Positions 3,001 to 61,724 of a stretch of 64,000 bases of DNA are shown one piece after another; position 1 is the stretch's first letter, and the number at the start of each line of letters is the position of its first letter. Source of the stretch: a virus; IMG/VR virus record IMGVR_UViG_3300045988_071280; one strand, 5' to 3'. Under the pieces are notes generated by a model. That model was not told the origin of the DNA, made no database searches, and saw nothing but the letters and a program-made list of their open reading frames with translations. The position numbers and the translations under genes were made by a program.

Positions 3001-5566
3001 ATCTAGATTTAATTTCCTCTCTTTCAGATTCTGATAAAGATCCATACGGTTTGCCGAGAATATTTTCTGTATATGTATATATATCAGAAGAATAAATTTT
3101 ATTAGATATTTCGCTTATATTAAATAAAGCTCTTTTTAAATATTCTTCGGATTTTCCTCCTCGTAATAATATATCTTTCTCTGTTCTTTTTTGTTGAAGT
3201 TCTTCATTTATTATATTTAATCTATTCTCCAACTCTATTTTATTTGGAATTTCTTTATTAGGAGCATTTAATTGATTCTCTATATCTTTCTTTTCTAGAA
3301 GTAAGTTTCCTATTTCTTTTCCTAATTGATTATAATCTCTAATAATATCTAATCTCCCATCAAATTTAATAAGATCTTCTACTCTCCTATCCCTTAATGC
3401 GGATAAAGATATTAATTCCTCGTCACTAAGGCGTAGATTTTCTTCATTAATAATAGCATCCCATTGATTTATTAATTGTAACGATAAGTCTATTACAGCA
3501 TCATTTTGGGAAATATCTCCAGATTCTACAGGAGAGTAATTTATATTCTCTCCTTCTATTGTTCTATTAGTAGCAGAAAGATTTTTTGGAGCTACACCTT
3601 GTTGTCTTAATCTCTCTAATTCTGAGATTAATTTAGATTTACCTCCATTTCGTAATATGTAAAAGATATTATCAGTAGCTTGTTCCGGAACTCTTTTATT
3701 TATATCAGATAAATTATTAGCAGCTTTAAATATAGCCCCACCAATAGCACCTCCAAAACCAGCCATTAAGTATCTTTCTAATGGATTAGAGGATAAGAAA
3801 TCAAAAGAAGCATCTTTTTGTGTACCAGAAATTCCTGTGAATATATCTGTAATAGCTTTAGACATATCCATAATAGCTTCTTCTGACATTTCCTCAATTC
3901 CCTCAGCTACAGCATTACTAGCTATTCCAGAACCTGAGATAATATTATTTATAGGTTCCTTTACTTTTTTAAATGTATTTATAGCTTTCTTTAATACAGA
4001 ATTAAATGCAGCTTTATCTTTTGTATTATTTGCAGTATAATGTAATAATTCTCTATTTTCTTCGATAAACTTTTTTCCAGCATTTCTTATAGCAGCTCTT
4101 TCACTATCAAATCCCAATCCCTCTAAAGCTTTCTGTCCTATTTCTGTAGATTGTATCATCCAAGTAGTAGCACCCATAGCTAAGCCTGCAGTTAAGGCAG
4201 CTGTTCTTCTATCATATCCGGCATCTAAAGCATCATTATAAACATCCATTGTAGAAGTTCCGGACATATAGAAATTAGCCATAAATCTACCTAAGAAATT
4301 ATTTCTTATATTAGCTTTATTTATTGCATTTATAACAGCAGGATCGTTACGAGTAATTGTATTATATAATCCTCTATTTTGAATTATACTACCATCAGAA
4401 ATAGCTTGTATTATATCATCTCCATATTTAGCTTTTATAGCTTTTAGAGCAGCCCTTTCAGAATTTCCAATACCAAGCCAGTTTGGAATTTGAGCTAATA
4501 ATCTTTGTTGGAATAATTGACTGCCAACGTCTGAGATTAATCTCCCAAAATTCTCAAAGGTTAATATTTTTTCTTGGGATTTATCAGATACACTAGTATT
4601 AAATTGATTGGCTTTGGCTTCTATAGTATTTAATATTCCATAATTAGGATTAGGATTATTATTAATAAACCCATCCATCATTTTATATAGAGTAATACCT
4701 AGCTTAGTACCTTCTCGAAGTACTAAAGCTCCAGCATAAGCCTGACCTACATATGGGATAAATAAAGGAGCGATACTAGCTATAGTTTGTGCTATAGTAG
4801 ATCCGATACTAGATTCTTCTCCATCATTATCAAAAAAATCAAATTTATTCCACGTAGAATTTTCTCTAGTAATTACATCAAATGCACTTAATACTTGTTT
4901 ACCGTGAACCTCTCGATTACCAAGAGTTTCATAATAAGGCATTCCACTTTCATCTAATTTTATTTCTCCCTTTTTATGTTGTATTAATCTTCCTGTTTCT
5001 GGATCAGTTTCTTGTATATCTCTATCATATTGAGCTAAAACTATCGGAGTTTTAGTTACTGTTCCCCAAAATCCTAAATCCTCTGGAGTAATATCCATCC
5101 ACCTATTATTCTCAGTATCAAAAATTTTATTTTGTTGAGCCATTTCTCTAGTAGACATACTAGTCATTTCTGTCCCTAGTATAGTATTTAATCCGGTGCT
5201 TTGAATAAAAGGATTTTTAGTCTTTATTATATCTAAAGAAATATCTTGTACAGGAGAAAGTTGAGATTTAAAAGGAGACATTATATCATATTGCACTTTG
5301 GGAAGATCCTCTTCTGTAAACTGTCCTATAGATAATGTATTATATGAAGATAATGCTTTATTATAAAATGTATCAAATGCGTTATCATCAAATTTTCCAT
5401 CGGGTGCAGTAAATGCCTGAACAATCTTTTCGTTTTGTTTATATTCATCCTTTGACTTCAATTCTATATCATTAGGAGTAACTCCGTTCTGTAAGAAGTC
5501 TATATAAGTTTTATCTTGGTTTGAGTAATATAACCCAAACCAATCCTTTTTTTCTAAATTATCCAT
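1..5566 (-). CDS. giant virion/ejected-cargo-type protein, first 1855 codons only (3' end lies beyond the left edge); contains a RecD/SF1-like P-loop NTPase module
   Basis: The ATG at 5566-5564 lies 1 nt after the upstream stop. My manual minus-strand translation stays open down to position 1, which explains why the track lists no ORF here (there is no stop inside the window). Motifs seen: Walker A FINGAPGVGKTTGV (~735-775), Walker B LIFIDEVTQL (~320-345), a GDLLQSG motif, and Gly/Ala-rich hydrophobic segments. Confidence 0.75.
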   Translation of the reverse strand, partial: MDNLEKKDWFGLYYSNQDKTYIDFLQNGVTPNDIELKSKDEYKQNEKIVQAFTAPDGKFDDNAFDTFYNKALSSYNTLSIGQFTEEDLPKVQYDIMSPFKSQLSPVQDISLDIIKTKNPFIQSTGLNTILGTEMTSMSTREMAQQNKIFDTENNRWMDITPEDLGFWGTVTKTPIVLAQYDRDIQETDPETGRLIQHKKGEIKLDESGMPYYETLGNREVHGKQVLSAFDVITRENSTWNKFDFFDNDGEESSIGSTIAQTIASIAPLFIPYVGQAYAGALVLREGTKLGITLYKMMDGFINNNPNPNYGILNTIEAKANQFNTSVSDKSQEKILTFENFGRLISDVGSQLFQQRLLAQIPNWLGIGNSERAALKAIKAKYGDDIIQAISDGSIIQNRGLYNTITRNDPAVINAINKANIRNNFLGRFMANFYMSGTSTMDVYNDALDAGYDRRTAALTAGLAMGATTWMIQSTEIGQKALEGLGFDSERAAIRNAGKKFIEENRELLHYTANNTKDKAAFNSVLKKAINTFKKVKEPINNIISGSGIASNAVAEGIEEMSEEAIMDMSKAITDIFTGISGTQKDASFDFLSSNPLERYLMAGFGGAIGGAIFKAANNLSDINKRVPEQATDNIFYILRNGGKSKLISELERLRQQGVAPKNLSATNRTIEGENINYSPVESGDISQNDAVIDLSLQLINQWDAIINEENLRLSDEELISLSALRDRRVEDLIKFDGRLDIIRDYNQLGKEIGNLLLEKKDIENQLNAPNKEIPNKIELENRLNIINEELQQKRTEKDILLRGGKSEEYLKRALFNISEISNKIYSSDIYTYTENILGKPYGSLSESEREEIKSRYKAYREDNNEKLDKAYKIFTSLSQKYGDNIINIVSKLPLLNKIKGYLSGIDEEALLNLDEDAKRNFDLARKLGLELGVPVERGIDYIFEYRNTDLSDINTQNIIKNFFNSINQDGSGIDVGSIFSTYKNSGEFISNIFDTIFNIDQKIDTLSNSINNKLNSNPTLDKNFVIRESIEEFLNENVSNSVVKSYIQDNLNLPNLNSPEEAISNIRKILINLSGLLQFNLIPQLRTRSMMNLIESARNEGIELTKDLYSYIKTYLKSDNKVELDYSSYVSNLLSYVDESLGELVNYDLQNIKSQSPDFQAALKEGFEEIGVNNLEEILLISEELKNVKDWFEVANLLKNSNLNDVEKRIIIESINDSNKSKTKSSLSEINILSEASIDSSQLVENPLNTLLSEIYLNIDESTGNINIFELLSNESDLLKSTNTLSDYVLQGKVKLEQLDTAINVINALQSVVSSMQSSTIENGGYGFNSTLNYIREKLGVSEKLPEIESNSAFEVIQELERIKNKLGFYKKLSEQNKGNKLKEHKLTAIKTRQALIKNYQDKLFKNRAPELFEGVDDILSNYNLDSLNNSDLTDEEYISLEKLILEVEDRIYDNATKLSKNNTVSKEHLISKLFQNYDYSKLMKEAYNNPASLNSEITEMSPSDLFIYYHTILTTKASTFNNALRDIVNESLGSDKQLIIPIFSQEYAARIALACIIDINFMNNSTELTKEFENSITNPALRDKYKNYISRLQNTVFINGAPGVGKTTGVDSLVFKLANKLLGEQGAVISGPKVQQTVNLLNSITGESYSETEGLNTINDAIKNKKLTAITADMLLNSILVSPEIIEKAKKQFNDSQSKTIPENERVIDILETQDKELVVRINPKYLTPSNFKSGIFQDQRLIFIDEVTQLSKFELELLSSWAQQNDKILITSGDLLQSGYAGSDGAYLGIDVDTNLIYTPTLATSLRITNIHKKDNLDSLRVLTDRVRNVDNYYTTGEFNLEEGIKIALSNYE

Positions 5567-11966: not shown

Positions 11967-12245
11967 TTATTGTCTTTTCTTTACTACTAATTTTCCTCCT
12001 CGACGCGCCATTACAGGCTCAGTAGGAGCTTCTGCTTGAGCAGCTTGTCCCTGAGTCATTTCGACTAACGCTGAACATACCGCCAATGCAGCTTGACAAT
12101 CCTGATTTTGAGTTGCCTGAGCAGCTAATTGAAGAATTTGTTGAAAGATTTGTTCTGGACTAGGTTGAGCCTGAGTAGCAGGTTCCGCGGGCATAGTTCC
12201 GCCCTCTTGTAAGATTTTTACTTTAAATTTTTCGTTTACTTTCAT
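11967..12245 (-). CDS. small virion-associated protein, 92 aa
   Basis: ORF with a leader ending in ILQEGG, an A/Q-rich core and a basic C-terminus. It has its own promoter-like motif upstream and a terminator downstream. Confidence 0.55.
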   Translation of the reverse strand: MKVNEKFKVKILQEGGTMPAEPATQAQPSPEQIFQQILQLAAQATQNQDCQAALAVCSALVEMTQGQAAQAEAPTEPVMARRGGKLVVKKRQ

Positions 12246-12273
12246 TTCTTTAATATTTAACGTTAAACTTGTA

Positions 12274-12281
12274 CAAAGTTA
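12274..12281 (-). promoter_or_regulatory. Bacteroidota-type -7 promoter element (TAnnTTTG)
   Basis: The minus strand reads TAACTTTG about 29 nt upstream of the ATG at 12245, inside a 150-nt intergenic gap. Confidence 0.35.
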
Positions 12282-12394
12282 GGATTTTGTATATAAAAAT
12301 CCTATTGTTTGGTAGTATTTAATAATTCTGAATTATTTACCACCTTTTGAACCTTTACCTTTAGATTTGCTTTTAGATTTACAAGCCATAATGT

Positions 12395-26105: not shown

Positions 26106-26789
26106 TTAAGCTTTAGCTACTTGATCATTTGGTAGGTTAGGTGCACTAAGGCTACGGTACCATCGTACCTTCTTTTCTGTAATCCTTCTCTTAATATCAT
26201 TAGTCAAGAAGTTCATATTAGATACTTCTTCCGCATTACAGCAAGTAAATTGTTCTAATTGTCTAGGATCTTTAAATACGGCTATTATAGATAGTGTTTT
26301 AATCAACGGAGCATTAAATATATAACAATCATACATCCCATTTCCATTAGGTGCTGTATCTATATAAATATAAGGCTTTCTTCCTAACCACCTATTATAT
26401 TTATGATACTGATAAGATATATCTGTATAAATTTTAAACGGAGTATTTCTATCAACAGTTCCAAAATACTGAATTGCATCAACTCCTAAATCTGTAACAA
26501 TTTGAGGTATTTCTACATGAGGAATATTAGTCTCTCTAACATTTAAATTAGAATTACATAAATTACAATTCTCTATAGGTTTACAATCTACCTCTAAACA
26601 ATTAATAGATGTAACTAAATCCTTAACTGGGAGAAGTCCTTTTAAAGCATATTCTTTTATTATAGTTAACCTCTCATCTATTATATCATCCTCTAACTGT
26701 TCAACGGATAAGGATATATTAGATGTAATACCTCTTAATCCTGATAAAATATCGTTTAAAATCGCAGAGGCTAATTTATTTAATTCCAT
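26106..26789 (-). CDS. putative head-tail connector/adaptor protein, 227 aa
   Basis: ORF that begins a new transcription unit after the terminator at 26804-26840. Function is inferred from position only. Confidence 0.4.
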   Translation of the reverse strand: MELNKLASAILNDILSGLRGITSNISLSVEQLEDDIIDERLTIIKEYALKGLLPVKDLVTSINCLEVDCKPIENCNLCNSNLNVRETNIPHVEIPQIVTDLGVDAIQYFGTVDRNTPFKIYTDISYQYHKYNRWLGRKPYIYIDTAPNGNGMYDCYIFNAPLIKTLSIIAVFKDPRQLEQFTCCNAEEVSNMNFLTNDIKRRITEKKVRWYRSLSAPNLPNDQVAKA

Positions 26790-29967: not shown

Positions 29968-30275
29968 CGTATTTTTCTTATATTTTCATATAAGCCAGAC
30001 TATATCATTAACTTATATTCTATTACCGTCTATAAGTTACCTCCCGTTTCCATATTTAACAATATGTACTCTACTCATTTATTCTCTAATATATTTCTTA
30101 TTAGATATATTTTCGATAGTCGTTGAACTTTGAATAAATATTTAAATAATATTTAAGCCTTAGCTGCTGATTAACATGTAGTAATTAATATGGACAATAC
30201 TATTTAGCCTTCCAGCAATTAGAGAGGTTTAATTTTTCTACATATCACTATGTAGCGGCGCTAGAGGAGTAGTTA
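29968..30275 (-). mobile_element. group I intron (P/Q/R/S family), ORF-less, 308 nt
   Basis: Minus-strand core elements: P AATTGCTGG (30212-30220), Q AATCAGCAGC (30163-30172), R GTTCAACGACTA (30117-30128), S GATATAGTC (29998-30006). P1 pairs exon GGCGU with AGCGCC and carries a U.G. A P2 hairpin CTACAT/ATGTAG follows. The omega-G is at 29968. Confidence 0.8.
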
Positions 30276-30760
30276 ACGCCAATTACATCAGTTTTTATCA
30301 TATCACAGCCTTTGAATGTCCAAGATTCAATAGCTGGTTTTCCGTTAGCTAAATCCGGAGTAAGATCTAGAATAAATCCAAATGCTTGATCAGGATATTC
30401 TATATTTAAAGCCTTATCCGGCATAAAGGTTATCGTATTACCTTGATATTCATAGCTAACAAAAGTATTACCTACTTTAATACCATCAACCGTTTCACCT
30501 ACTTTCTTCTTAACACCAGAAGATTTACTATACATCAAAGTAGCAGTAGGAGTCCATTTTCCAATTTCATCCATTAAGTTATCACCAACCTGATTCCAAA
30601 GTAAAGAGTTACAGATTAATACATAATCATTGCCAGTTAAATTCTTTGCCTTAGAGGTTAAGAAACTTAATGCTTCTTTGAAGTGTGAAGTAAGTAATTG
30701 ATCGAAAGAGATTAAGTATGCGTATCTTTCTATTTGAGGAATAATTCCATCGCCTATATA
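30276..30760 (-). CDS. major capsid protein (putative), exon 4 of 5
   Basis: Corresponds to track ORF 30248-30763, which needs a GTG pseudo-start. The exon is 485 nt, starts in phase 0 (YIGDGIIPQ...) and ends ...KTDVIGV with GT open. The ORF tail YSSSAAT* is read-through into the intron. Confidence 0.75.
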
Positions 30761-32127
30761 CACTATTTATACTTTATATTACTATAAAGATTAGACTATA
30801 TCTTTAACTTATCATTAATTTAAATACTTAAATAAATATCCTTTACAAGTTTTTCCTCTTCCTTTTAAAACTCTTCCACAACCTGGATATTGCTTACTAC
30901 ATTCTCCTACAGTTTTAAAAGTTTCTAATAATTCTCCATCTAAAGAATATCTTCCGACCATTCTTCCGGTATGAAGATACTTAGAAGATTCTTTATTTGG
31001 CATGGCTGGAATTTTTTCTATACTCCATTGATAACCTTGCCAAGTTCTATTTAATTTAATTGCACTACTAATACCCTTTTTTCCTAAAGCTCTTTCAGCT
31101 TCTGCAAAAGAACTATATTCATTTAAATATTCCCCAGAAAGGGAATATTGATATACAGGAGTATTTTTTAATTGCTTACATTTAGCTCTAGAATAATTAC
31201 CTTCTAATTCGTAAGATACATATTTATTATTTATCAAATATCCAGCTTTTATTGCTCTAATAACATTTCCTGTTGCAGAATTTAATTCTTTAGCAGCATC
31301 AGTTATAGATTGATAAAATTTTTCATAATTTCCATCTTTATCATATTGATAAACAGGAATTTTATGTTGATCAATAATAAAGTCTTTTGGATTTACTGAT
31401 TTAAATTTTTCAGTTGTCCATAGATATTTAGCACAAGGATGTTTTGTCATTATAGCAATACTTAATGTTGTATAATATCTATCTACAGCTCTTGAAGCAT
31501 CTGCAATAGATTTATATTCATTTATATATTCTCCTTCTAAAGAATATTGATATACAGCTTTAGCATTTACTCCTCTATCTCCCCCATTTCCTCCTAAAGC
31601 AGTGTTATACACATCCTTTCTTTTTAAAAATTCTTCATTAACAATAATTGATTCTAAATAATAAGCATCTTCTTCATTATCAAAAACTTGGATAGTTTTT
31701 CTAATAAAGGCTTTTACTCCATATTTATTAACAGCAGCTTGAAATACTGTTTTACTGAATTTATATGTAGAAGGTTGATTTATAACAACCCCACATCCTA
31801 AATACCCATCAAAAATATCTGGATTTTCGGTTTGATGTACTCCCACATATATTTTTTTATTAATTGTGTTAGTAGTTAGATATACTATATATTTCATATT
31901 TAAATTTTTATAAGTTAATTCCCATTTCCAGATAAAATCTGTACTCCTTGCGGATAGTCGTTGAACGTTCCTTTTGCGTTACTCAAAGAGCCTACTTATC
32001 AAAAGGCTTCGCTGCTGATTGTCTTTAAGTAGCAGATTAAAGATATTCCAGCAATTAAAGAATTTAATTTATCATACTGTTTCCAGTATGCGACCCATGT
32101 TTAACATAGACGTTTGTTAAAAGTCCC
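30761..32127 (-). mobile_element. group I intron (P/Q/R/S family) carrying a GIY-YIG homing endonuclease gene, 1367 nt
   Basis: Core elements: P 32048-32056, Q 32011-32020, R 31955-31966, S 30794-30802. P1 pairs exon GACCU with GGGUC. P2 is CATACTG-GAAA-CAGTATG. The ORF sits between R and S, i.e. in a P8-type position. Confidence 0.8.
30815..31897 (-). CDS. GIY-YIG homing endonuclease with four NUMOD/IENR1-like repeats, 360 aa
   Basis: The N-terminus MKYIVYLTTN...KIYVGVHQT...YLGCG...AVNKYG...FDNEEDAYYLE follows the GIY-(10-11)-YIG pattern. Four ~45-aa repeats of the type VYQYSLxGEYxNEY...A follow. The ORF lies wholly inside the intron. Confidence 0.85.
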   Translation of the reverse strand: MKYIVYLTTNTINKKIYVGVHQTENPDIFDGYLGCGVVINQPSTYKFSKTVFQAAVNKYGVKAFIRKTIQVFDNEEDAYYLESIIVNEEFLKRKDVYNTALGGNGGDRGVNAKAVYQYSLEGEYINEYKSIADASRAVDRYYTTLSIAIMTKHPCAKYLWTTEKFKSVNPKDFIIDQHKIPVYQYDKDGNYEKFYQSITDAAKELNSATGNVIRAIKAGYLINNKYVSYELEGNYSRAKCKQLKNTPVYQYSLSGEYLNEYSSFAEAERALGKKGISSAIKLNRTWQGYQWSIEKIPAMPNKESSKYLHTGRMVGRYSLDGELLETFKTVGECSKQYPGCGRVLKGRGKTCKGYLFKYLN

Positions 32128-32408
32128 AGGTCTCTGCGTTTGCGGGTCCACGATTGTAGCTTTCCCGTTGGCATCCACGTTACTGCGTGCCCAAAGATCG
32201 TGTTTAGCTTTAACTTCTAAGAAATTCTCAATAAGAGTCTTTTCCATTGAAGTCATAGTAAACAATTTTTCACTTCCTTTAGTTTCCGTATCACTAATTT
32301 TCAAGAATACATCTTCATTAGCTAAATAAGCTTGAGATGCATCAATATCATTTCTATGTAAAGTCAAGTAATTACGATGAACCTCCATATTAGATTGATA
32401 TTTTGTAG
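32128..32408 (-). CDS. major capsid protein (putative), exon 3 of 5
   Basis: Corresponds to track ORF 32101-32388. The exon is 281 nt, CT + 93 codons, encoding (S)TKYQSNMEVHRNY...DPQTQRP. The ORF tail GTFNKRLC* is intron read-through. Confidence 0.75.
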
Positions 32409-32639
32409 CGTTAGTACTTTATATCACTATAAAGATTAGACTATATCTTAATCTTATTATATAAGATCTTCTCTGCTTCGGAATTAAATATTCCTACTCC
32501 ATATTGGATAGTCGTTGAACGTTCTATATTGTATTTAAATACTCATATAGCTTCGCTGCTGATTGTCTTTAAATAAGATGTTCCAGCAATTCAGAGAATG
32601 TTTCAATATTTATTACTAAATAAAGGGGCCTACAATTTA
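32409..32639 (-). mobile_element. group I intron (P/Q/R/S family), ORF-less, 231 nt
   Basis: Core elements: P 32583-32591, Q 32555-32564, R 32509-32520, S 32439-32447. P1 pairs exon GGGU with GCCC. P2 is TATTTA-GTAA-TAAATA. The omega-G is at 32409. Confidence 0.8.
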
Positions 32640-32929
32640 ACCCAAAGTCGTGATAATCAAACGGATGAGCATTTGATAAGAAGTGAGTAGTCATACCCGG
32701 CTGACATGCGGAAGTATCCAAATATGACTGATAATCATTATCAATCAATCGAACAGTATATTCATAGAATTTATTACTCCTCCAAATTGGACGAGAAGTA
32801 ACATAACACTGTTGATGTGATTTATCTATTACAAAAATATCATGTTTATCATAGTATTTTTCCTTAAACAGCATCTTAATTTCTGTCCCTCCAATTCCAT
32901 CACCTTCGGGAACAGCGTAAAAAGGAATA
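32640..32929 (-). CDS. major capsid protein (putative), exon 2 of 5
   Basis: Corresponds to track ORF 32569-32874, and the frame stays open 18 codons further upstream. The exon is 290 nt: 1 + 96 codons + 1, encoding IPFYAVPEGDGIGGTEIKMLFKEK...HPFDYHDFG. Confidence 0.7.
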
Positions 32930-34223
32930 CGTTTAATGAACTATTCTATTTAAAGAATTTAGACTATATCATTTACTTATTTATGATATTTAAAGATATA
33001 ATCCTTATAATATTTATCACCCATCTGAATATTTTTTAATTTACTAGATGGGATATTGTATTTTTCTCTTACATCTTTTATACTATCTAAAGTCTCTATA
33101 TAATTTCCAAATGTATCATATATATCAATCGTTATTCCTTTAGAATAATATTTATCCGGAATATTTATTACTTCTGTGGTTGATATATAATAATCCTTAT
33201 ACCATCCATTATTATATAATATCACATTCTTAATTTTATTCCAAGAATGGAGCTTTATAACCTTCATCACCATCTTACCCTTAAATTGTCCTATATAAAC
33301 TCCATCTTTATTATATACATGATATATTAAATTCTTATAATTTGCTCTAGTTTTTGGAATAAATTCATCAACCAATTTATTAGATATATAATACTTATCT
33401 AATACCAAAGATTGATTTTTAATAGCTTTATTTATATCTAAATCTCCAAGATATTTAATACATTCATCCTTATCTAAGAACTCATTTAATAATTTCCCTT
33501 TTTTAGTATATAAATAAATAGTATTATTTAATTTATTTAAAGAATATTTAATAACATCTATCTCCGGTTCTAATGACCAATAGGAATTAAGAAATTTAGA
33601 TTTATTACTTATCGCGAATTGAAATTTTTTAGGAGATTCTCCATAAAAATCATATGCTTCTAAGGAATAATTCCATTTCTTCTCTAATTCTCCAGTTGTA
33701 TTAAATTGATATAAAGGAGATATGTTATTTACACTAGAACAATAATTATACGTATGATCGGAATTTAAAAAAGTATCATTAACTAATTCTAATTCCTTTT
33801 CATATGCCTCTTCTGGAGTATTAAATATATATAATATAGTCCTCTCAAAAGCCTTCGTCCCATATTTTTTAACAGCATATTGGAACGGAGTTTTTGGATA
33901 CATAAAAGTACTTGGTTGATTTATATAAACTCCAGATCCTAAATACCCATCAAAAATATCCGGATTTTCGGTTTGATGTATTCCGATATAAATTTTATTT
34001 AATTCTCCAACTTTAGATTTTAAATTTTTAGTAAGATATACAATATATTTCATAAGTAATTCAGTTTTTCAATCTTATTTATAAGATTTACAGGTTTCCC
34101 TTAGTCGTTGAACACTACTTTCATCAAAGTCATGCTGCTGATTGTCTCTAGTAGCAGTAAAGATTCCCAGCAATTTAAAGAATTTATTGTGAACCTCATT
34201 GATTCACATCCACGTCCCACTCA
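32930..34223 (-). mobile_element. group I intron (P/Q/R/S family) carrying a GIY-YIG homing endonuclease gene, ~1294 nt
   Basis: Core elements: P 34167-34175, Q 34134-34143, R 34102-34113, S 32962-32970. The omega-G is at 32930. The 5' splice site is ambiguous: 34224 (P1 CUAU/GUGG) and 34230 are both phase-compatible. Confidence 0.75.
32977..34053 (-). CDS. GIY-YIG homing endonuclease, 358 aa (paralog of 30815-31897)
   Basis: The N-terminal ~95 aa are clearly homologous to the other intron ORF (MKYIVYLTKN...IYIGIHQTENPDIFDGYLGSGV...AVKKYGTKAF). The C-terminal DNA-binding part has diverged. Confidence 0.85.
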   Translation of the reverse strand: MKYIVYLTKNLKSKVGELNKIYIGIHQTENPDIFDGYLGSGVYINQPSTFMYPKTPFQYAVKKYGTKAFERTILYIFNTPEEAYEKELELVNDTFLNSDHTYNYCSSVNNISPLYQFNTTGELEKKWNYSLEAYDFYGESPKKFQFAISNKSKFLNSYWSLEPEIDVIKYSLNKLNNTIYLYTKKGKLLNEFLDKDECIKYLGDLDINKAIKNQSLVLDKYYISNKLVDEFIPKTRANYKNLIYHVYNKDGVYIGQFKGKMVMKVIKLHSWNKIKNVILYNNGWYKDYYISTTEVINIPDKYYSKGITIDIYDTFGNYIETLDSIKDVREKYNIPSSKLKNIQMGDKYYKDYIFKYHK

Positions 34224-34441
34224 ATAGCAAAAGCATCAATACTCTTACGTCCGGGCTTAGGAATATCTTGATAAACCATATTTTCAATTCTCTCAGTTAA
34301 AGCTGATACAGTATGTCCGGGACATAAAGATGCAGCTAAACCTACTCTATGAGTAATTCGTCCCAAGAATTGGGAGAAATCATGAAAAGTTCTTGAGCCA
34401 TTCATATTGGCTCGATTTGAAATGTATTCTGCTACAAACAT
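34224..34441 (-). CDS. major capsid protein (putative), exon 1 of 5
   Basis: Corresponds to track ORF 34196-34441. The ATG lies 18 nt after the scaffold-like gene. The exon ends in phase 2. The boundary is uncertain by 6 nt. Confidence 0.65.
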
Positions 34442-54999: not shown

Positions 55000-56116
55000 C
55001 ATTTATGTTCAATGTGGTTCGTTACTCCACATCCGGGAATTTACCCAGCTATATGTTTCCATATAGATCAGACTATATCATACATAATTGATCTAGTATA
55101 AGGTCTAAAAGATTTTTAGAAAAACATTCAGTTGATGTTTCATGTTCCCAATGTTTAGGCAAATATAAATTATTTTTAATTAGTCTTTTTAATTTAGTTT
55201 CTAATGTTTTACAATCTATAGGATTTTCAAAAGAAATAGTTTTAATTACTTCTATTTCATAGCCAAGATTTTTATACTCTTTAAATCTTCTAATTTGTCC
55301 GTTTTCTAAAGTATAAGATATTCCCAATTTATAAAAACTTTCTTCTTCATTATATAATCGTATAAGATAAAATGTATCACTACATTTCCAGTTTTTACAT
55401 TTTGGACATCCCCTACCCATAAATATATAATCATTATCTATAGATACTTCTCCATGTTCTGGACATATTAAAATAGATTTACCTCCGTGTCTACTAGTTT
55501 CAGTAATTTTAAAATCATACTTGTCTCCATAAATAAATTTAAGTTGATTGTAAAAATACTGTTTTCTATCAACCGCTGCCTCAATCGTAGGCATAAATCC
55601 TTTAGATATCAAATTTCCAGGAGTTACAGAAACTAAGCCAAATTGTGTTTCAAACAGCATTTTTGAGTTCATTCCACTATATTCAGATGCAGGCTTTATA
55701 TTATTATATATATGCTCTTGTTTTTCTTTCAATAGATTCATGAAATATTCAGTTTTGTTTATGGCTGCCTTTATTCCAGGAGTATAAAGTAAAACTTGTT
55801 TTGCTGTATTAAACGACATTACTCCATATTTGTCCTTTACTAAAATTGGTTTAGAAAGTCCTTTAAACCTACTTACCACTTCGATATCTTTATTATATAA
55901 AGACTCTACTTCCTTTTTAAATTGTTCTTCTGTGTACTTCATTCTTTTTCAAATTACTTATTAAATTATGTTTCCGTGCTTCGAACTCACTTGAGTCCTA
56001 TAATTAGTCGTTGAACCTTCCTTTAAAATATTTAAAGGCTTGGCTGCTGATTAGCATAGATAAATTATCTTTAGCTTCCCAGCAATTCTCGGAATTTACC
56101 CAGGACCTGTATATTA
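55000..56116 (-). mobile_element. group I intron (P/Q/R/S family) carrying a T5orf172/GIY-YIG-like endonuclease gene, ~1117 nt
   Basis: Core elements: P 56079-56087, Q 56043-56052, R 56005-56016, S 55071-55079. P1 pairs exon CAGGAU with GUCCUG and has a terminal U.G. The ORF stop TAA at 56116-56114 is the first intron triplet. Confidence 0.8.
55073..55942 (-). CDS. intron-encoded putative homing endonuclease, T5orf172 (GIY-YIG superfamily)-like C-terminal domain plus zinc knuckle, 289 aa
   Basis: The segment CPEHG...CPKC is followed by FYLIRLYNEEESFYKLGIS...R...E...TECF, which resembles the T5orf172 pattern. The ORF lies between R and S of the intron. The N-terminal half contains two related ~50-aa repeats. 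Confidence 0.55.
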   Translation of the reverse strand: MKYTEEQFKKEVESLYNKDIEVVSRFKGLSKPILVKDKYGVMSFNTAKQVLLYTPGIKAAINKTEYFMNLLKEKQEHIYNNIKPASEYSGMNSKMLFETQFGLVSVTPGNLISKGFMPTIEAAVDRKQYFYNQLKFIYGDKYDFKITETSRHGGKSILICPEHGEVSIDNDYIFMGRGCPKCKNWKCSDTFYLIRLYNEEESFYKLGISYTLENGQIRRFKEYKNLGYEIEVIKTISFENPIDCKTLETKLKRLIKNNLYLPKHWEHETSTECFSKNLLDLILDQLCMI

Positions 56117-57322
56117 ATCCTGTAAATCTGCTGTAGCTAATACTAAACTAAACGGGATATTTTGTCTCGTTGTCATAAATAACCCATTAACAGATAATGT
56201 ACATTCCTTAGGATTATCCATAGATCTAACTACATTTAAATCTACATCCCTAACAATATAAATATCACTAGCAATTTTAACTACAGAGTATCTATGCATT
56301 ACACCATCTTTTCCTGTCTCTATATATTCTACCTCATATACAGTAATTAATCTATTATTATATCCATACATTCCAGTATTCCCATCCCAAACAGGAGTTA
56401 CCTCTAGTCCCCCTAATATTCCGGTAGCAAATTCCGAATCCTCTGTAGTAGCAGCATTTATTGGTCCGGTAGATCTTATTATATACTTCTGATTATCAGT
56501 ATAATATGCCTTCTCTAATTCATCTCTTAACTTAGTTTTATCAGCTTCTGTTAATTCTGAATTATATTTAGATAGGATCTGATCTACTGTCATGTAATAT
56601 CTACAAACAGCTCTAGGAGATTTATTTAAATAATAACTATTAGGATTTTTCTCCACAAAAGTATTAATAGGATTTAATCCTTCTATATCCACATTATTCC
56701 CACTTCTAGAAGGTTGTGTTTTAAAATAAAGTGTTCCGGAGATTAATAAATCCGTCATTAATAATCTAGCTTTTATATCTAAATCAATACTTTTAGATTG
56801 AGATAAATATGTTATAATATTCTGTGCTGCTATTTCATATTCAGAAATAAAATTTTTATCTATATCTTCTTTTAATAACTGTAGAGACTTTTCAGTTAGA
56901 GGATCTTTTGTTATAGGAGTATTCTGATCTCCGAATTTAGAGAGAATAGTATTATATAAATTACTCATATATAATTCCCTAACTCCATCTAATACTTTAA
57001 GCTGTCTCTCTCTATTTATTAAAGATAATGTCTTTTGATCTTTACATGTAATTTGCATATTTAATGGAGCATCTAGAAACTTCCCAACTAAATAATCTAT
57101 GTGCTTTTTTATAAGTGGTATAAATTGTATTTGTGTCGGAGTTCCTATTCCATAATTTTCTTCGAAATGCTTATATTGATCTAAATCCATCTTCCCGTGA
57201 TAGTAGTTATAAGCTTTTCTTATTGCTACTTTATCATATACGAGATCAGAAATAGCTTGGTTGGCCTTCTGAATTTGATAGTCTTTTGATCCTCGTTTGT
57301 ACTCGACGCTCATCCAAATCAA
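56117..57322 (-). CDS. portal protein (putative), exon 1 of 2
   Basis: 402 codons ending ...LATADLQD, exactly at the predicted U.G splice site. The gene is adjacent to terL. The spliced product would be 745 aa. An alternative start is Met at 57313. Confidence 0.65.
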
Positions 57323-57587
57323 TTTTTTGTCCTACGAAGTATCTAGTTAGATTTAAACCTCGAAGGTGTAGTTCTTTCTTTATTTTTTCTAAAAACTTCT
57401 CTTTACTATCACATTGGATATATATACATAAAGGAGTTAAGTAATCTTCTGTTATATACATTTTAAGTATATAACCGTCCTCTGTTTTAATTATATCCAT
57501 TGGTTTATTATATATCGCTCCATATAATTCTAATATGTATTCTTTAATCATACATATTAAATATTCTTTTTCAGTCGTATTAATCAT
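57246..57587 (-). CDS. hypothetical protein, 113 aa
   Basis: ORF whose ATG overlaps the terL stop by 8 nt. Its 3' end overlaps the portal ORF start by 77 nt. Confidence 0.45.
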   Translation of the reverse strand: MINTTEKEYLICMIKEYILELYGAIYNKPMDIIKTEDGYILKMYITEDYLTPLCIYIQCDSKEKFLEKIKKELHLRGLNLTRYFVGQKIDLDERRVQTRIKRLSNSEGQPSYF

Positions 57588-57772
57588 ATACTGAATCTGT
57601 TCTAGATATTAATACTTTTAAATCCTCTGGAATTCCATCATCTGTAGGTATTTTTCCGAAATGTTTTACTCCATTAGAATCATAATAATATCCTATTTTA
57701 CTTATTTTAATTTTTTTCTTTTTCTCACCAATTCCTCCTAGTAATCTTAGTTCTTGATCGCCCATTTCGCAC
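57580..57772 (-). CDS. terL: terminase large subunit, exon 4 of 4
   Basis: Corresponds to track ORF 57580-57765. The exon is G + 64 codons: (M)CEMGDQELRLLGG...TDSVYD*. The leading G completes the AT left open by exon 3. Confidence 0.65.
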
Positions 57773-58041
57773 CATATTTGTTATCTATAAGGCTTTTTAT
57801 CCTTATATTCTTATAATTTCTTATAAGTTCAGCATATATTTTCATCTTATATTTAAATAAGATGTTCCGCACTCGTGGAAGGATTATTACTCTCATTAAC
57901 GTTCACCTTCTATGCGTTACAATGGCTAACGATGTTTTAGCTTATCTCGGTATTAGCATGGTATTTAAACTTTAACTTTCACCGATTTTGCGGAATTATT
58001 TTATTACCTTAAATTTCTTTAAGGAGGGACATGTAAGGTTT
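57773..58041 (-). mobile_element. group I intron (terL family), ORF-less, 269 nt
   Basis: P1 pairs exon GGGGAU with GUCCCU and carries a U.G. P2 is CCTTAAA-GAAA-TTTAAGG. P3 is TTCCGCA/TGCGGAA. The 3' end is GATAACAAATATG followed by the exon. It is homologous to the other two terL introns. Confidence 0.7.
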
Positions 58042-59060
58042 ATCCCCATCGCAGCGATAATATCAAACTTCCTCTTATTCTCATAAGAATAATCTTTTAA
58101 TTCATTTAACATCTCCACAGAATCAATTTTATCCCAAAATTCATTAACATAATCCTGAATAAGTTCAAGATAATACTCAATAACTCTTTTTGAGGGATAA
58201 ATACCATACATACTAGAATTTAAAGATTTCTTCTTAGATACATCTGTACTATTCGGAGATTGTAATTTTTTCATTAATAAATATTGTTTTCCTTTATCCT
58301 GAAAATAACTTACAATAGCTGTTCTGGAACTTTCTAATACTGCTTTTGCTCCATACCATTCTAATAATAGAATTGTCTGATTATAAGCCGTTCTAATATT
58401 CTCGGGTCTATCTTTATATATAGCTACATATTTATTCCCATCAAGTCCATAATTTCTCTTCTTTATAACTAAACAGAAATCAGATGTATCCTTCTGTCCA
58501 GTAGATTGATCAATACCTTGGTCAATAGAGTCAATTCCAGCAACATAAAGATTAGGTATTAAATCTCCATTCTCATCTCTTATAGGCTCTTCAAATATTT
58601 TAACTTTACCATTAGGAGAAGAGATGAATTTAATATTATCTCTACCTCCATCTGTAGCTAAAGCAAGTATACCAATTTTTGGTTTTATTCCGTAGCCATG
58701 AACTTCTATATCTGTTAATCTTTGTGCAATTAAATTCTGATTGAACATATTATCTCCTTTCCTAGATAAAGCTTCTTGGAAAGTCCAACAATACTCTGCA
58801 CAATGTACCATATAAGCAAAGGGATCATTAGAGTATCTTTGACGTTCAATCATTAAAAATTCTTCTGCTTTCTTACGTATTGTAACTCCTCGATTATCTA
58901 TTATCCCAGGTTGCATTACTATAGCGGTAGACGGGATAAAGTATGCTGTATAGACTGTACGATTATCTGAGGAGTGATTATGTTTATATGGTAAGATTCC
59001 GAAGGAAATTGGATCAAGAAACATTCGTTCTAGTCCTTCTAAGGATGGACCGCTATCTCC
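58042..59060 (-). CDS. terL: terminase large subunit, exon 3 of 4 (nuclease domain)
   Basis: Corresponds to track ORF 57996-59063, which needs a GTG pseudo-start. It contains RNase H-like nuclease motifs YVAGIDSIDQG, TSDFCLVI and FDIIAAMG. The exon is 1019 nt and ends in phase 2. The ORF tail INLTCPSLKKFKVIK* is intron read-through. Confidence 0.8.
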
Positions 59061-60194
59061 CACTTTGTTATCTCTAGAGCTTTTTATCTCTAGATTCTTA
59101 CACTTCTTAATTTATGTAAGGTCAGCATATATTTTCATCTGTTCTAGATGTCGAACACTCGTGGTAGGATTATATTTATTCACCTACTATGCGTTACAGT
59201 ATCAATTAACCTTTCGTAATTTAATTGATTACCTCGGGATTAGCATCACAGCTTTCCCCGATTTTGCTCGATTTTCTCAATGAAGATTCCTCTTCAAGCC
59301 GGCAAAATTCTTCGTAAATTTTATATTTTCTTTCTAAGTAAATAGTAGAATCTTTATATAACATTCTAGCTACTTTTCTAGCTTTATAATTACTATAACT
59401 AATTTTATATGCTTTATTATTTTGTTTAGGACAAACTTTAGTATATTCTCCTAAAAACTCTACTATACGTTGTAAGAAATCTTTAGTTCCAACAAATCCT
59501 AAATTTTCCCTAACTTTATTAGTATTATTTACAGGGTAAATTCCAAGAGTCCCATCTCCATCAAGATAACCTCTAATAAAATCATATATAAGAGATTTAG
59601 TTTTAAAAATAGAAGTATCTGGAAAAACTAAAGTAAGAGATTTTCTAGGAGTACATCCTTTAGAATTTAATGCTTCCCATATATGTTTGTTTCTAACAGA
59701 AAATCTACATACATCATCCTTTCCTTTACCATATTGAGGAGATATTCTTATTTTGTCCTCTGTGTATTCTAAAAACTCTTGAAATTTTTTTAAGTGTTTC
59801 CAGTCTTTGGCAGCTAAATTAATTTCTAATTTATATTCTTTAGATCCTATATTTCCATCTGCATATAAAAATCCTAGCCAGTATGCCTTTTCCTCAGTAT
59901 CTATAGTATCAAATACTGTTTCATTAATTCTACATCTATTTTGAGCATTTATGACTTCTATACCTCTCTTTTTTAAATGTCTAGAAATTAATCTTCTATC
60001 AAGACCGTATTTTTCACCTAATTTTGTTAAGCTTCTAGAATTTTCTGGAGTTTCCAAATATTCATTTATAGCATTTTCTAGTAGTAATTGTTTTTGTTCA
60101 CTTAGCATATATATTACATTTTATAATTAAACATTATTTATTACAAATGTAATATAAAATATTAATATTTACAAGTGGAGAAAAATATATCTTT
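59061..60194 (-). mobile_element. group I intron (terL family) carrying a LAGLIDADG homing endonuclease gene, 1134 nt
   Basis: P1 pairs exon CCGGU with GCCGG, which lies downstream of most of the ORF. P2 is TGAAGA-GGAA-TCTTCA. P3 is TCGAGC/GTTCGA. P4 is TCGGG/CCCGA. The omega-G is at 59061. Confidence 0.75.
59221..60108 (-). CDS. double-motif LAGLIDADG homing endonuclease with N-terminal HTH, 295 aa
   Basis: Motif 1 is YWLGFLYADGNIG and motif 2 is FIRGYLDGDGTLG. The N-terminus has an HTH-like segment LTKLGEKYGLDRRLISRHLKKRG. The ORF is not in frame with the terL exons. Confidence 0.9.
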   Translation of the reverse strand: MLSEQKQLLLENAINEYLETPENSRSLTKLGEKYGLDRRLISRHLKKRGIEVINAQNRCRINETVFDTIDTEEKAYWLGFLYADGNIGSKEYKLEINLAAKDWKHLKKFQEFLEYTEDKIRISPQYGKGKDDVCRFSVRNKHIWEALNSKGCTPRKSLTLVFPDTSIFKTKSLIYDFIRGYLDGDGTLGIYPVNNTNKVRENLGFVGTKDFLQRIVEFLGEYTKVCPKQNNKAYKISYSNYKARKVARMLYKDSTIYLERKYKIYEEFCRLEEESSLRKSSKIGESCDANPEVIN

Positions 60195-60621
60195 ACCGGT
60201 ACCATAAGCAATCTTAAACCCAACTCTTTGTCCAATTACCTTAATAAGAGCATCTCCTTGAATCCATTTTTTAATCAATTCGGGGTCAGAACCTGCTTCC
60301 TCATATATCAACAATTCACATCGATCACCTCTGACTTTAGAAGGTTTATCTGCTACGATACCTGTTATCATAGATTTAAATCCAGATTCATTACCTTCTC
60401 TATCTTTCTTTGATGCTCTTTTTTGGACCATAGTATTTATCGCTTGGCGTAAATGCTTAAATCCATTCTCTGTTTCTGTATTTAAATAATCCAATTGTAC
60501 CCAGCATTTCTCTAATGTCTTAGCTAAGAAATCACTAGTTGCTGCGGTATATATAGATTGAGACTCTGGTTCACATGTATACATTGCAACTCCATTATTT
60601 GCTCCCATTTCACTGAAACCG
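60195..60621 (-). CDS. terL: terminase large subunit, exon 2 of 4 (ATPase core)
   Basis: Corresponds to track ORF 60162-60608, and the frame stays open upstream (GFSEMGANNG...). The Walker B/coupling segment is CELLIYEEAG. The exon is 1 + 142 codons and ends ...KIAYGTG. Confidence 0.8.
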
Positions 60622-60915
60622 CTTCTGTTATCATAAAGACTTTTTATTCTTTATTTCCTGGAGTTTCCTCCTTACTATATTTAGATTTAATCATCTAAAG
60701 GATCGGCGCACGTTTTTATCTCATATTTAAATATAAGATATTCCGAACTCGTGGGAAGATTATTACTCTCTTAACGTTCACTTCCTGCGCTCTACGATAA
60801 TTAATTGATATTTAATCATCTCGGCATTAACATAGTTTATATTTAAACCTTAGTCTTTACCGATATTTCGGAATTTATTACCCCTAAATTACTTTAAGGG
60901 AGGCCCGGTATTTTA
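60622..60915 (-). mobile_element. group I intron (terL family), ORF-less, 294 nt
   Basis: P1 pairs exon GGGCU with GGCCU. There are two adjacent U.G pairs, so the boundary is uncertain by 1 nt. P2 is CCCTTAAA-GTAA-TTTAGGGG. P3 is TTCCGAA/TTCGGAA. The 3' end is GATAACAGAAG followed by the exon. Confidence 0.7.
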
Positions 60916-61724
60916 AGCCCACGTCCCTTTAAAACAAGAGCATCTTTATTTGTTTTCCTACATAATTCCAGATAATGAAAATATTCATATTGTTTTGCTA
61001 GAAACATTGGAAAAGATGTAGCACGTTTACCTTTTTTTGTTCCTCCTGTATTTAATATAATCGGAGTTTGCATTCGATAGAAATTTAAATAAAAATAATT
61101 CCATCCAGTTATAGTATAACCATGTGAACTATATCCCTCAGTACATCTTCTAAATCTCTCATCCCAGAAATTATTATATGCAGGACCTTTATAAGCATAC
61201 ATCTCATACTTCCCTGTAGCTTCTTTAGTCATCGCATCTTCTCTGAACCAATCAGGATTAAAATCTAATCCTTGTGTTTCTGTTATAGGTCTATACCCAG
61301 TAAGTTCATACGAAAGTTCGGGATCAAAGAAATCTACTGGATCTCCTATTTTAACATCCCAATCAGTAAATACTTCTGATTGTTCTAGAGCTTTAGTCTT
61401 TAATTTACTATATAAATAATCATCTATTTCAACTTCATCTCTAGCAATTTTATAATTAGATAAATCTTTAGATATATAAGAATTATCATATAATTTCTGC
61501 TCTTCCGATTCATCTTCTTTTAACTTTTCTGGAGTATCGTAGATACTAAGATCTTTTACTATTGTTTCAGTATCTAAAGAATTTAAAAGTTCCTTTGTAG
61601 TAGGTTTCTTTTTTACAACTCTTTTAGGTTTTTCTGGTTCGGAATCTACTTTTTTAGGAACATCTTTCTTTGCCTTTACTTTAGATACATTACCTTTTGC
61701 TCCATATGTAATTTTCCTAGCCAT
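60916..61724 (-). CDS. terL: terminase large subunit, exon 1 of 4
   Basis: Corresponds to track ORF 60894-61724. It ends ...ALVLKGRG-L. Joined to exon 2 it gives a Walker A-like KGRGLGFSE. The ORF tail KIPGLP* is intron read-through. Confidence 0.75.

Follow-up and report, generated by a model that had tools for sequence, protein, structure and literature searches.

Is a phage gene for the terminase large subunit (terL) that is interrupted by three spacers still expressed as a single protein and, if so, what are the spacers? The question is raised by positions 57580-61724 (minus strand) of IMG/VR virus record IMGVR_UViG_3300045988_071280, a stretch of 64,000 nucleotides (nt) with 29% G+C, which we call the window. 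Gene callers would report four or five fragments here, together with a small 'orphan' open reading frame (ORF), instead of one TerL, and correct joining of the exons matters because TerL is a standard marker for phage classification. A preliminary description, made from the sequence without database searches, had proposed that four exons of terL are separated by three homologous group I introns showing compensatory base changes. Every testable element of this proposal has held. We consider it highly probable that group I introns are spliced at the predicted junctions 60916|60621, 60195|59060 and 58042|57772, and the evidence supports the three spacers being paralogous, mobile group I introns.

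Exon structure and junctions of terL

The four exons add up to 2448 nt (809 + 427 + 1019 + 193), their phases match and the product has 815 amino acids (aa); coordinates, lengths and phases were reproduced exactly as first described. For every upstream segment, a stop codon lies a few codons beyond the proposed 5' splice site. With PHROG 6681 (terminase large subunit) the spliced protein gives an E-value of 2.8e-68 over profile positions 62-741 of 758. Among GenBank phages its relatives are found in 139 phage records, almost all crAss-like, and the closest match among these is an uninterrupted terL, 43% identical. Megablast of the terL region against the GenBank phages gave no match, this collection containing no close relative.

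When the spliced TerL is compared with the uninterrupted gene of MT835470.1, a single tblastn segment is obtained (residues 92-794, 43% identity over 703 aa), which is free of gaps at all three junctions. Junction 1 (LKGRGL|GFSEM) stands opposite LKARGVGFSEI, junction 2 (AYGTG|GDSGP) opposite VWGTGGDQGP and junction 3 (IIAAMG|MCEMGD) opposite IIAAWGMCELGD. The 61-aa ORF at 57580-57765, as had been proposed, is the C-terminus of TerL and not a separate gene: exon 4 is aligned in MT835470.1 as well and is contiguous with exon 3 in six related loci (L004, L009, L011 and L016-18).

These loci belong to a set of 23 from IMG/VR (L numbers), most of them with a TerL 96-100% identical to that of the window. 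Site 1 is empty in 11 of them, site 2 in three (L004-L006) and site 3 in six. Every empty site is the predicted ligated junction at its exact length, and this places the terminal guanosines (omega-G) at 60622, 59061 and 57773, where they had been predicted. A shift of any boundary by a single nt alters the protein or breaks the rule of a U before the 5' site and a terminal G. Only these boundaries combine a U at -1, a terminal G and homologous protein sequence. For intron 1, the preliminary description had left open another 3' site, after 60606. Its use would remove five codons that are kept in all intron-less alleles, and it is rejected: the 11 intron-less alleles match 60916|60621 at exact length.

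The insertion points fall within highly conserved TerL segments, namely KGRGL|GFSE (P-loop-like), GTG|GD and FDIIAAMG|M (in the nuclease part). Homing introns typically insert at conserved segments. The first of the three we take to be like the deviant P-loop KSARVGYS of lambda gpA. The Walker A, Walker B and nuclease aspartate labels previously attached to the protein should be regarded as putative and, as worded, lack support: the spliced TerL matches no Pfam family, and a PDB sequence search gave no relevant match that could anchor them.

Could the spacers instead be non-spliced insertions (other mobile elements or intergenic sequence), with TerL made as four polypeptides or the gene reduced to a pseudogene? 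Possible start codons near the 5' ends of exons 1, 2 and 4 would fit such an arrangement. We nevertheless consider it very unlikely, given that the exon phases match and restore a colinear TerL, that the junctions lie mid-way in conserved motifs, that the gene is uninterrupted in close relatives, that terL is essential for tailed phages and that the spacers have an RNA structure backed by strong covariation (see below). Another class of intervening sequence is more improbable still, to the point of being negligible, and no observation was found in its favour. An intein is opposed by stop codons that close all frames within the first few codons of each spacer. Group II introns are opposed by the length of the shorter spacers (269-294 nt, which is too short) and by the lack of any group II match in Rfam. 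As for translational bypass, a gap of 269-1134 nt is far beyond any that we know of. All these classes are also opposed by the occurrence of the helices in group I order, including the P3/P7 pseudoknot.

Architecture and covariation of the intron RNAs

The three introns are mutually homologous (70% mean column identity in alignment) and share the helix order P3-P4-P5-P6-P7-P3'-P8-P7', with the P3/P7 pseudoknot enclosing P4-P6 (Table 1). In intron 3, for example, P1 is formed by GGGGAU of the exon and GUCCCU, the U.G lying where cleavage takes place, P3 is UUCCGCA/UGCGGAA and P4 is UCGGU/ACCGA. P7 is formed by A-(C)-GCAUA with UAUGCU, in which the C is bulged and is followed by a G-C pair; a bulged nucleotide and G-C pair in P7 are the usual form of the guanosine pocket. 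On the 3' side of P7.1 there follow the invariant CACGAG linker, P8, J8/7 (GAAAAUA), P9, a hairpin with a AUAAAAAG loop and the tail GAUAACA...G. In intron 1, the last five nt of exon 1 pair with the internal guide sequence (IGS) at 60901-60905. The omega-G directly precedes the 3' exon in all three introns, the boundaries being those fixed by the exact-length empty-site alleles. By inspection, P10 could be formed by ACCG/CGGU in intron 1 (4 base pairs (bp)) and by CAU/GUG in intron 3 (3-4 bp, with compensated variants in relatives). Unconstrained folding recovers P1, P2, P4-P6, P7.1, P8 and the 3' hairpins, with z of -3.1 for intron 3 and -4.4 for intron 1. In P5 of introns 1 and 3, CUAAG...UAUG resembles the 11-nt GAAA-tetraloop receptor, and the same two introns carry GAAA-capped hairpins in the P9 region; as far as can be read from the sequence, intron 2 has neither.

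The blocks CCACGAG and GATAACA(A/G)A that had been noted as common to the three spacers are indeed present in all of them, as are the stems listed with them. The block AAATCGG is also shared, except that intron 1 reads ATATCGG. P3 covaries as claimed, with the correction that in intron 2 it has 7 bp (UCGAGCA/UGUUCGA) and not 6. The second covarying stem can be identified as P7.1, and the P1 with U.G and the GNRA-capped P2 covary as well. Beyond these, covariation extends to P4, P5, P6, P7, P8 and the 3' hairpin.

Model R1 is a covariance model of the terL intron core with 172 positions. P7, a pseudoknot, is omitted from it, and P4'-P6 of intron 2, which MAFFT misaligned, was left out of the seed and aligned by the covariance model instead. 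With the core model the terL copies reach 199 bits (intron 3), 181 bits (intron 1) and 90 bits (intron 2), at E-values between 3e-45 and 2e-19, a similarity far above what chance would give. In eight distinct terL-site cores, standard pairs occupy 99.1% of cells, compared with 30-48% when the partners are slid, and 15/41 pairs change on both sides. Ten sequences covering the three sites give 98.9% paired cells for P1, P2 and the 3' hairpin, with double-sided changes in 13/19 pairs. In these sequences the pairing of P1 is complete (100%), three of its five pairs changing on both sides between sites, and the splice-site U.G is invariant (10/10). The pairing counts of the terL spacers exceed those of every shuffle and every slid control.

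A family search with R1 in 100 phage loci, which had been collected with a permissive sequence pattern, gave 115 matches at a cut-off of E < 0.001. In the resulting 115-member alignment 94.6% of cells pair (30-47% when slid), double-sided changes are found in 39 of the 41 pairs, and none of 500 shuffles reaches the observed pairing values. P7 pairs in 100% of cells, although it lies outside R1 and its 5' strand lies outside the recruiting pattern too. One P7 position is AU in 55 cases, GC in 34 and CG in five. The second P7 pair is G-C in 94/94 distinct sequences and is preceded by one unpaired nt and a covarying A-U/G-C/C-G pair. At the level of the sequence, a guanosine-binding site appears to be present in P7. 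P7.1 is a single covarying hairpin (99.2% paired, double changes in 5/5 pairs) next to the single-stranded CACGAG. The 3' hairpin with its GAUAAC tail occurs in 52/104 distinct family members, with more than 30 different stems, nearly all of them fully paired.

Certain points weigh against the conclusion that these are spliced group I introns. Splicing itself is inferred. By inspection, P10 of intron 2 would consist only of G.U and A-U pairs. Between P7 and P3' only P7.1 is present in the terL introns, a second hairpin not having been found there. The large covariation alignment was fitted to R1 for all helices except P7, and its loci were recruited by a sequence pattern covering P3', P8 and P7'. 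Finally, the search with the Rfam group I model RF00028, proposed in the preliminary description as a check, failed: all three terL introns fall below its gathering score of 50 bits. Searched in isolation with laxer filters, intron 3 scores 34.6 bits (E 1.9e-7), the core of intron 2 scores 24.5 bits (E 1.8e-4) and intron 1 gives no match at all. On terL as a whole RF00028 finds nothing, even at E up to 10 over 4.5 kilobases (kb), and a scan of the entire window likewise gives no match there.

The RF00028 alignments of introns 2 and 3 nevertheless give the same P1, P2, P3, P4, P8, J8/7 and P9 as were assigned by hand. Model R1, for its part, detects introns that are RF00028-positive: one at 32436-32600 of the window (E 0.0016) and one at 5191-5360 of L061 (E 1.6e-8), an RNA that scores 104 bits with RF00028. 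Because R1 matches such introns while the terL introns have sub-threshold RF00028 scores, the latter are a group I lineage that is poorly represented by the Rfam model. The failure of RF00028 is a property of one model and not of the ribozyme class. It is a clean case of the Rfam group I model failing on real introns, and over 100 relatives are recovered once a model is derived from these copies.

The sub-threshold scores would also fit introns that derive from group I but no longer splice by themselves, either relying on a protein cofactor (a LAGLIDADG maturase or a host factor) or including one decaying copy that reduces the expression of TerL. In intron 2 the ORF is situated within the P1 loop, some 890 nt from the splice site, and could thereby delay folding, and LAGLIDADG proteins act as maturases in organelles. 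We judge this to be unlikely: none of the three copies has lost a core helix, the P7 bulge with its G-C pair, the U.G or the omega-G, many independently assembled genomes carry the same introns in this essential gene, and two of the introns are ORF-less and have no maturase of their own.

If the terL introns do splice autonomously, established group I chemistry predicts the following sequence of steps. In the terL pre-mRNA each IGS would pair with the last 5-6 exon nt to form P1, with the U.G wobble at the cleavage site. Free guanosine, held in P7, would attack after the splice-site U. The guide would then align the 3' exon through P10, the terminal G of the intron would enter the same pocket, and ligation of the exons would yield one TerL reading frame of 815 aa.

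Table 1. Exons, introns, intron elements and endonuclease ORF of the terL locus (window coordinates)
Feature	Coordinates	Strand	Details
terL exon 1	60916-61724	minus	809 nt, aa 1-270 phase 2; 3' end ...GGGCU
terL exon 2	60195-60621	minus	427 nt; starts CGGU (P10 partner), 3' end ...ACCGGU
terL exon 3	58042-59060	minus	1019 nt; 3' end ...GGGGAU
terL exon 4	57580-57772	minus	193 nt including stop; TerL C-terminus, holds 61-aa ORF 57580-57765
Intron 1	60622-60915	minus	294 nt, ORF-less group I intron; covariance model 181 bits
Intron 1, 5' part	IGS 60901-60905; P10 strand 60906-60909; P2 60881-60900		P2 with GUAA loop
Intron 1, core	P3 60867-60873/60741-60747; P4 60859-60863/60821-60825; P6 60799-60817		
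Intron 1, P5/P5a	60829-60855		CUAAG/UAUG receptor-like motif
Intron 1, P7 region	P7 60786-60792/60705-60710; P7.1 60754-60785; CACGAG 60748-60753; P8 60718-60739		
Intron 1, 3' part	P9 60680-60699; GAAA hairpin 60660-60671; AUAAAAAG-loop hairpin 60633-60654		
Intron 1, tail	omega-G 60622		GAUAACAGAAG, terminal omega-G
Intron 2	59061-60194	minus	1134 nt; endonuclease ORF in P1 loop; covariance model 90 bits
Intron 2, 5' part	IGS 59299-59303; P2 59278-59297		P2 with GGAA loop
Intron 2, core	P3 59265-59271/59151-59157; P4 59257-59261/59234-59238; P5 59242-59253; P6 59201-59229		
Intron 2, P7 region	P7 59188-59194/59124-59129; P7.1 59164-59187; CACGAG 59158-59163; P8 59136-59150		
Intron 2, 3' part	P9 59097-59120; AUAAAAAG-loop hairpin 59073-59094; omega-G 59061		Tail with omega-G
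Intron 3	57773-58041	minus	269 nt, ORF-less group I intron; covariance model 199 bits
Intron 3, 5' part	IGS 58025-58030; P2 58007-58024		P2 with GAAA loop
Intron 3, core	P3 57989-57995/57865-57871; P4 57981-57985/57947-57951; P5 57955-57977; P6 57925-57941		
Intron 3, P7 region	P7 57911-57917/57831-57836; P7.1 57878-57910; CACGAG 57872-57877; P8 57844-57863		
Intron 3, 3' part	P9 57810-57827; AUAAAAAG-loop hairpin 57786-57807; omega-G 57773		P9 with GAAA loop
LAGLIDADG homing-endonuclease ORF	59221-60108	minus	295 aa, inside intron 2 P1 loop

The endonuclease and the allelic forms of the introns

The ORF of intron 2 belongs to the LAGLIDADG endonucleases. It matches the endonuclease family PHROG 4645 (E 3e-57) and, in Pfam, PF14528 with 22.6 bits (cut-off 22.5), while its score with PF00961 (21.9 bits) is below the cut-off of 23.1. 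Its translation contains two LAGLIDADG motifs, LGFLYADGNI and IRGYLDGDGTLG, the second including YLDGDGT. The last 27 codons or so run through P1', P2, P3, P4 and P5 and into P6. The enzyme presumably cuts intron-less alleles during co-infection, and repair would then introduce a copy of the intron along with a few nt of the adjoining exons.

In the relatives each of the three sites is found in empty, ORF-less, ORF-remnant or ORF-containing form. At site 2, a short form of 284 nt, in which only the 3' end of the ORF is kept, is present in 15 relatives. Sites 1 and 3 have ORF-less introns of 269-295 nt, ORF-remnant introns of 325-326 nt and ORF-containing introns of 1042-1048 nt (at site 3, the ORF-containing form is 1042 nt and the remnant 325 nt). 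The 284-nt and 325-326-nt remnant forms document loss of the endonuclease gene by deletion. The related genomes show every stage of the intron and endonuclease life cycle at three sites of one gene.

The long introns of site 1 (L018 and L024) and site 3 (L010, L012 and L026) carry a related LAGLIDADG ORF in the P5a loop, whereas that of intron 2 in the window is in the P1 loop. In both arrangements the ORF extends at its 3' end into the ribozyme core, and the endonuclease gene may have moved between the two loops. The long site-1 intron (L018 4952-5999 and L024 6810-7857) is a mosaic: P1-P2 and P9 are of site-1 type and P3, P6 and P8 are as in the long site-3 introns, which suggests recombination between the paralogous introns of terL. 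Within this gene the 5' guide and the 3' domain seem to be site-specific, with cores being exchanged between sites.

Alleles of terL with and without the introns were also compared along all 2448 nt, and every difference fixed between them is synonymous. The six at site 1 are all confined to the stretch from -6 to +6 nt around the insertion point. Of the nine at site 2, seven fall between -10 and +16, and site 3 has a single one, at -3. The nucleotides close to the insertion points that carry these differences are those of the guide pairings P1 and P10. Such a distribution is consistent with co-conversion in the course of homing, with selection for pairing to the guide, or with both, and the terL alleles provide a convenient natural data set for homing and co-conversion.

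Relation to known introns and spread of the family

Like RF00028, the terL introns have the canonical helix order, and several junctions are similar: J3/4-P4 (AAAUCGG in terL versus AAUUGCGG), J6/7-P7 (GUAACGCAUA versus UCAACGACUA) and J8/7-P7' (GAAAAUAUAUGCU versus gAAGAUAUAGUCu). Because of the P7.1 hairpin between P7 and P3' the terL introns may be called IA-like. IA introns usually carry two hairpins at this position (P7.1 and P7.2, or P7.1a) and, since only one is present here, the assignment to the subgroup is a loose one.

Phage Twort orf142 contains three related group I introns, and the T4 td, nrdB and sunY introns are of type IA2. As in terL, several similar introns per phage gene, a P7.1-type insertion between P7 and P3', endonuclease ORFs in peripheral loops and insertion at conserved functional motifs are found in these phages. 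The terL introns differ from them in their P7 (GCAUA/UAUGC or GCGCA/UGCGC, not the usual GACUA/UAGUC), in the conserved CCACGAG linker, AUAAAAAG-loop 3' hairpin and GAUAACA tail, and in the location of the intron 2 ORF in the P1 loop.

The closest setting is that of the crAss-like phages, the same kind of host genome: the TerL of the window has its greatest similarity to terminases of Crassvirales, and the related contigs measure 100-185 kb. Crass-like phages of the Delta and Zeta groups have been described as having group I introns and inteins at high density (Yutin et al. 2021, PMC7886860), a point restated in a 2025 paper on Zeta phages (PMC12386605). As in the window, introns are dense and interrupt core genes, with LAGLIDADG or other endonucleases. 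Yutin et al. found the introns through their endonuclease domains, with the RNAs unmodelled, and Delta-group TerL typically has inteins, not introns (PMC7886860); two of the three terL introns described here are ORF-less and would be invisible to that approach. In Bastillevirinae (for example, SIOphi), terL contains two or three group I introns whose splicing was shown by sequencing of complementary DNA (PMC11878797). The gene is the same, with multiple IA-like introns, many carrying a homing endonuclease in a loop, but the hosts are unrelated (Bacillus myoviruses) and the terL family is another. The Bastillevirinae introns were found with RF00028/GISSD models, whereas those described here fall below the RF00028 threshold. 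Both group I introns in crAss-like phages and multi-intron terL genes are already published, and nothing here alters the known workings of group I introns. What is modestly new is that the lineage escapes RF00028 and is widespread in other phage core genes.

Many R1-family matches occur in phages without any gene similar to the window. Host genes include those for portal, DNA polymerases, three other TerL families, the major head protein, a DnaB-like helicase and a Sak4-like protein, and some genes have two to four copies within about 2 kb. Examples among the IMG/VR loci L027-L122 are L102 4112-6466, L061 3691-5360 and L108 12080-14059. In a GenBank phage (L002, MT835539.1, 1507-5736), a terL 37-48% identical to that of the window is interrupted at sites 1 and 2 and not at site 3, and R1 matches both interruptions (2764-2954 and 4337-4487). 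This terL has many in-frame stops (that of the window has none), and the phage therefore appears to use stop-codon recoding.

It is possible, if somewhat doubtful, that the terL introns are part of a large unmodelled subclass of phage group I introns which has spread between the terL sites. Its signature may be a P7 of GCAUA/UAUGC, a single P7.1 followed by a CCA(C/A)GAG linker, and a 3' hairpin with a AUAAAAAG loop followed by a GAUAAC tail. Were this true, the curated Rfam model would systematically miss the subclass and the intron content of gut phages would be under-counted.

Counting those in terL, in the portal gene and in a gene at 29977-34441, the 64-kb window contains at least six group I introns. 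The portal gene lies beside terL and is also split (minus strand), with an N-terminal part at 57322-56114 (PHROG portal) and a C-terminal part at 55002-53968. The spacer of about 1.1 kb between them holds a 289-aa ORF (55942-55073). Searched alone with RF00028, this spacer scores 45.5 bits (55944-56155) and 25.6 bits (55049-55166) at its two ends, and it resembles a canonical group I intron of the GACUA/UAGUC type whose P8 loop holds an ORF. The gene at 29977-34441 (minus strand) gives RF00028 scores of 87 bits at 32417-32649 and 70 bits at 29977-30285 and includes two homing-endonuclease ORFs (30815-31897 and 32977-34053, PHROG 314); its exon fragments gave no PHROG match. Two weak R1 matches elsewhere in the window (12154-12319 and 26519-26564, E 0.6-0.9) were judged to be due to chance. 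Between terL and the portal gene there is a 113-aa ORF (57246-57587, minus strand), which overlaps the terL stop by 8 nt.

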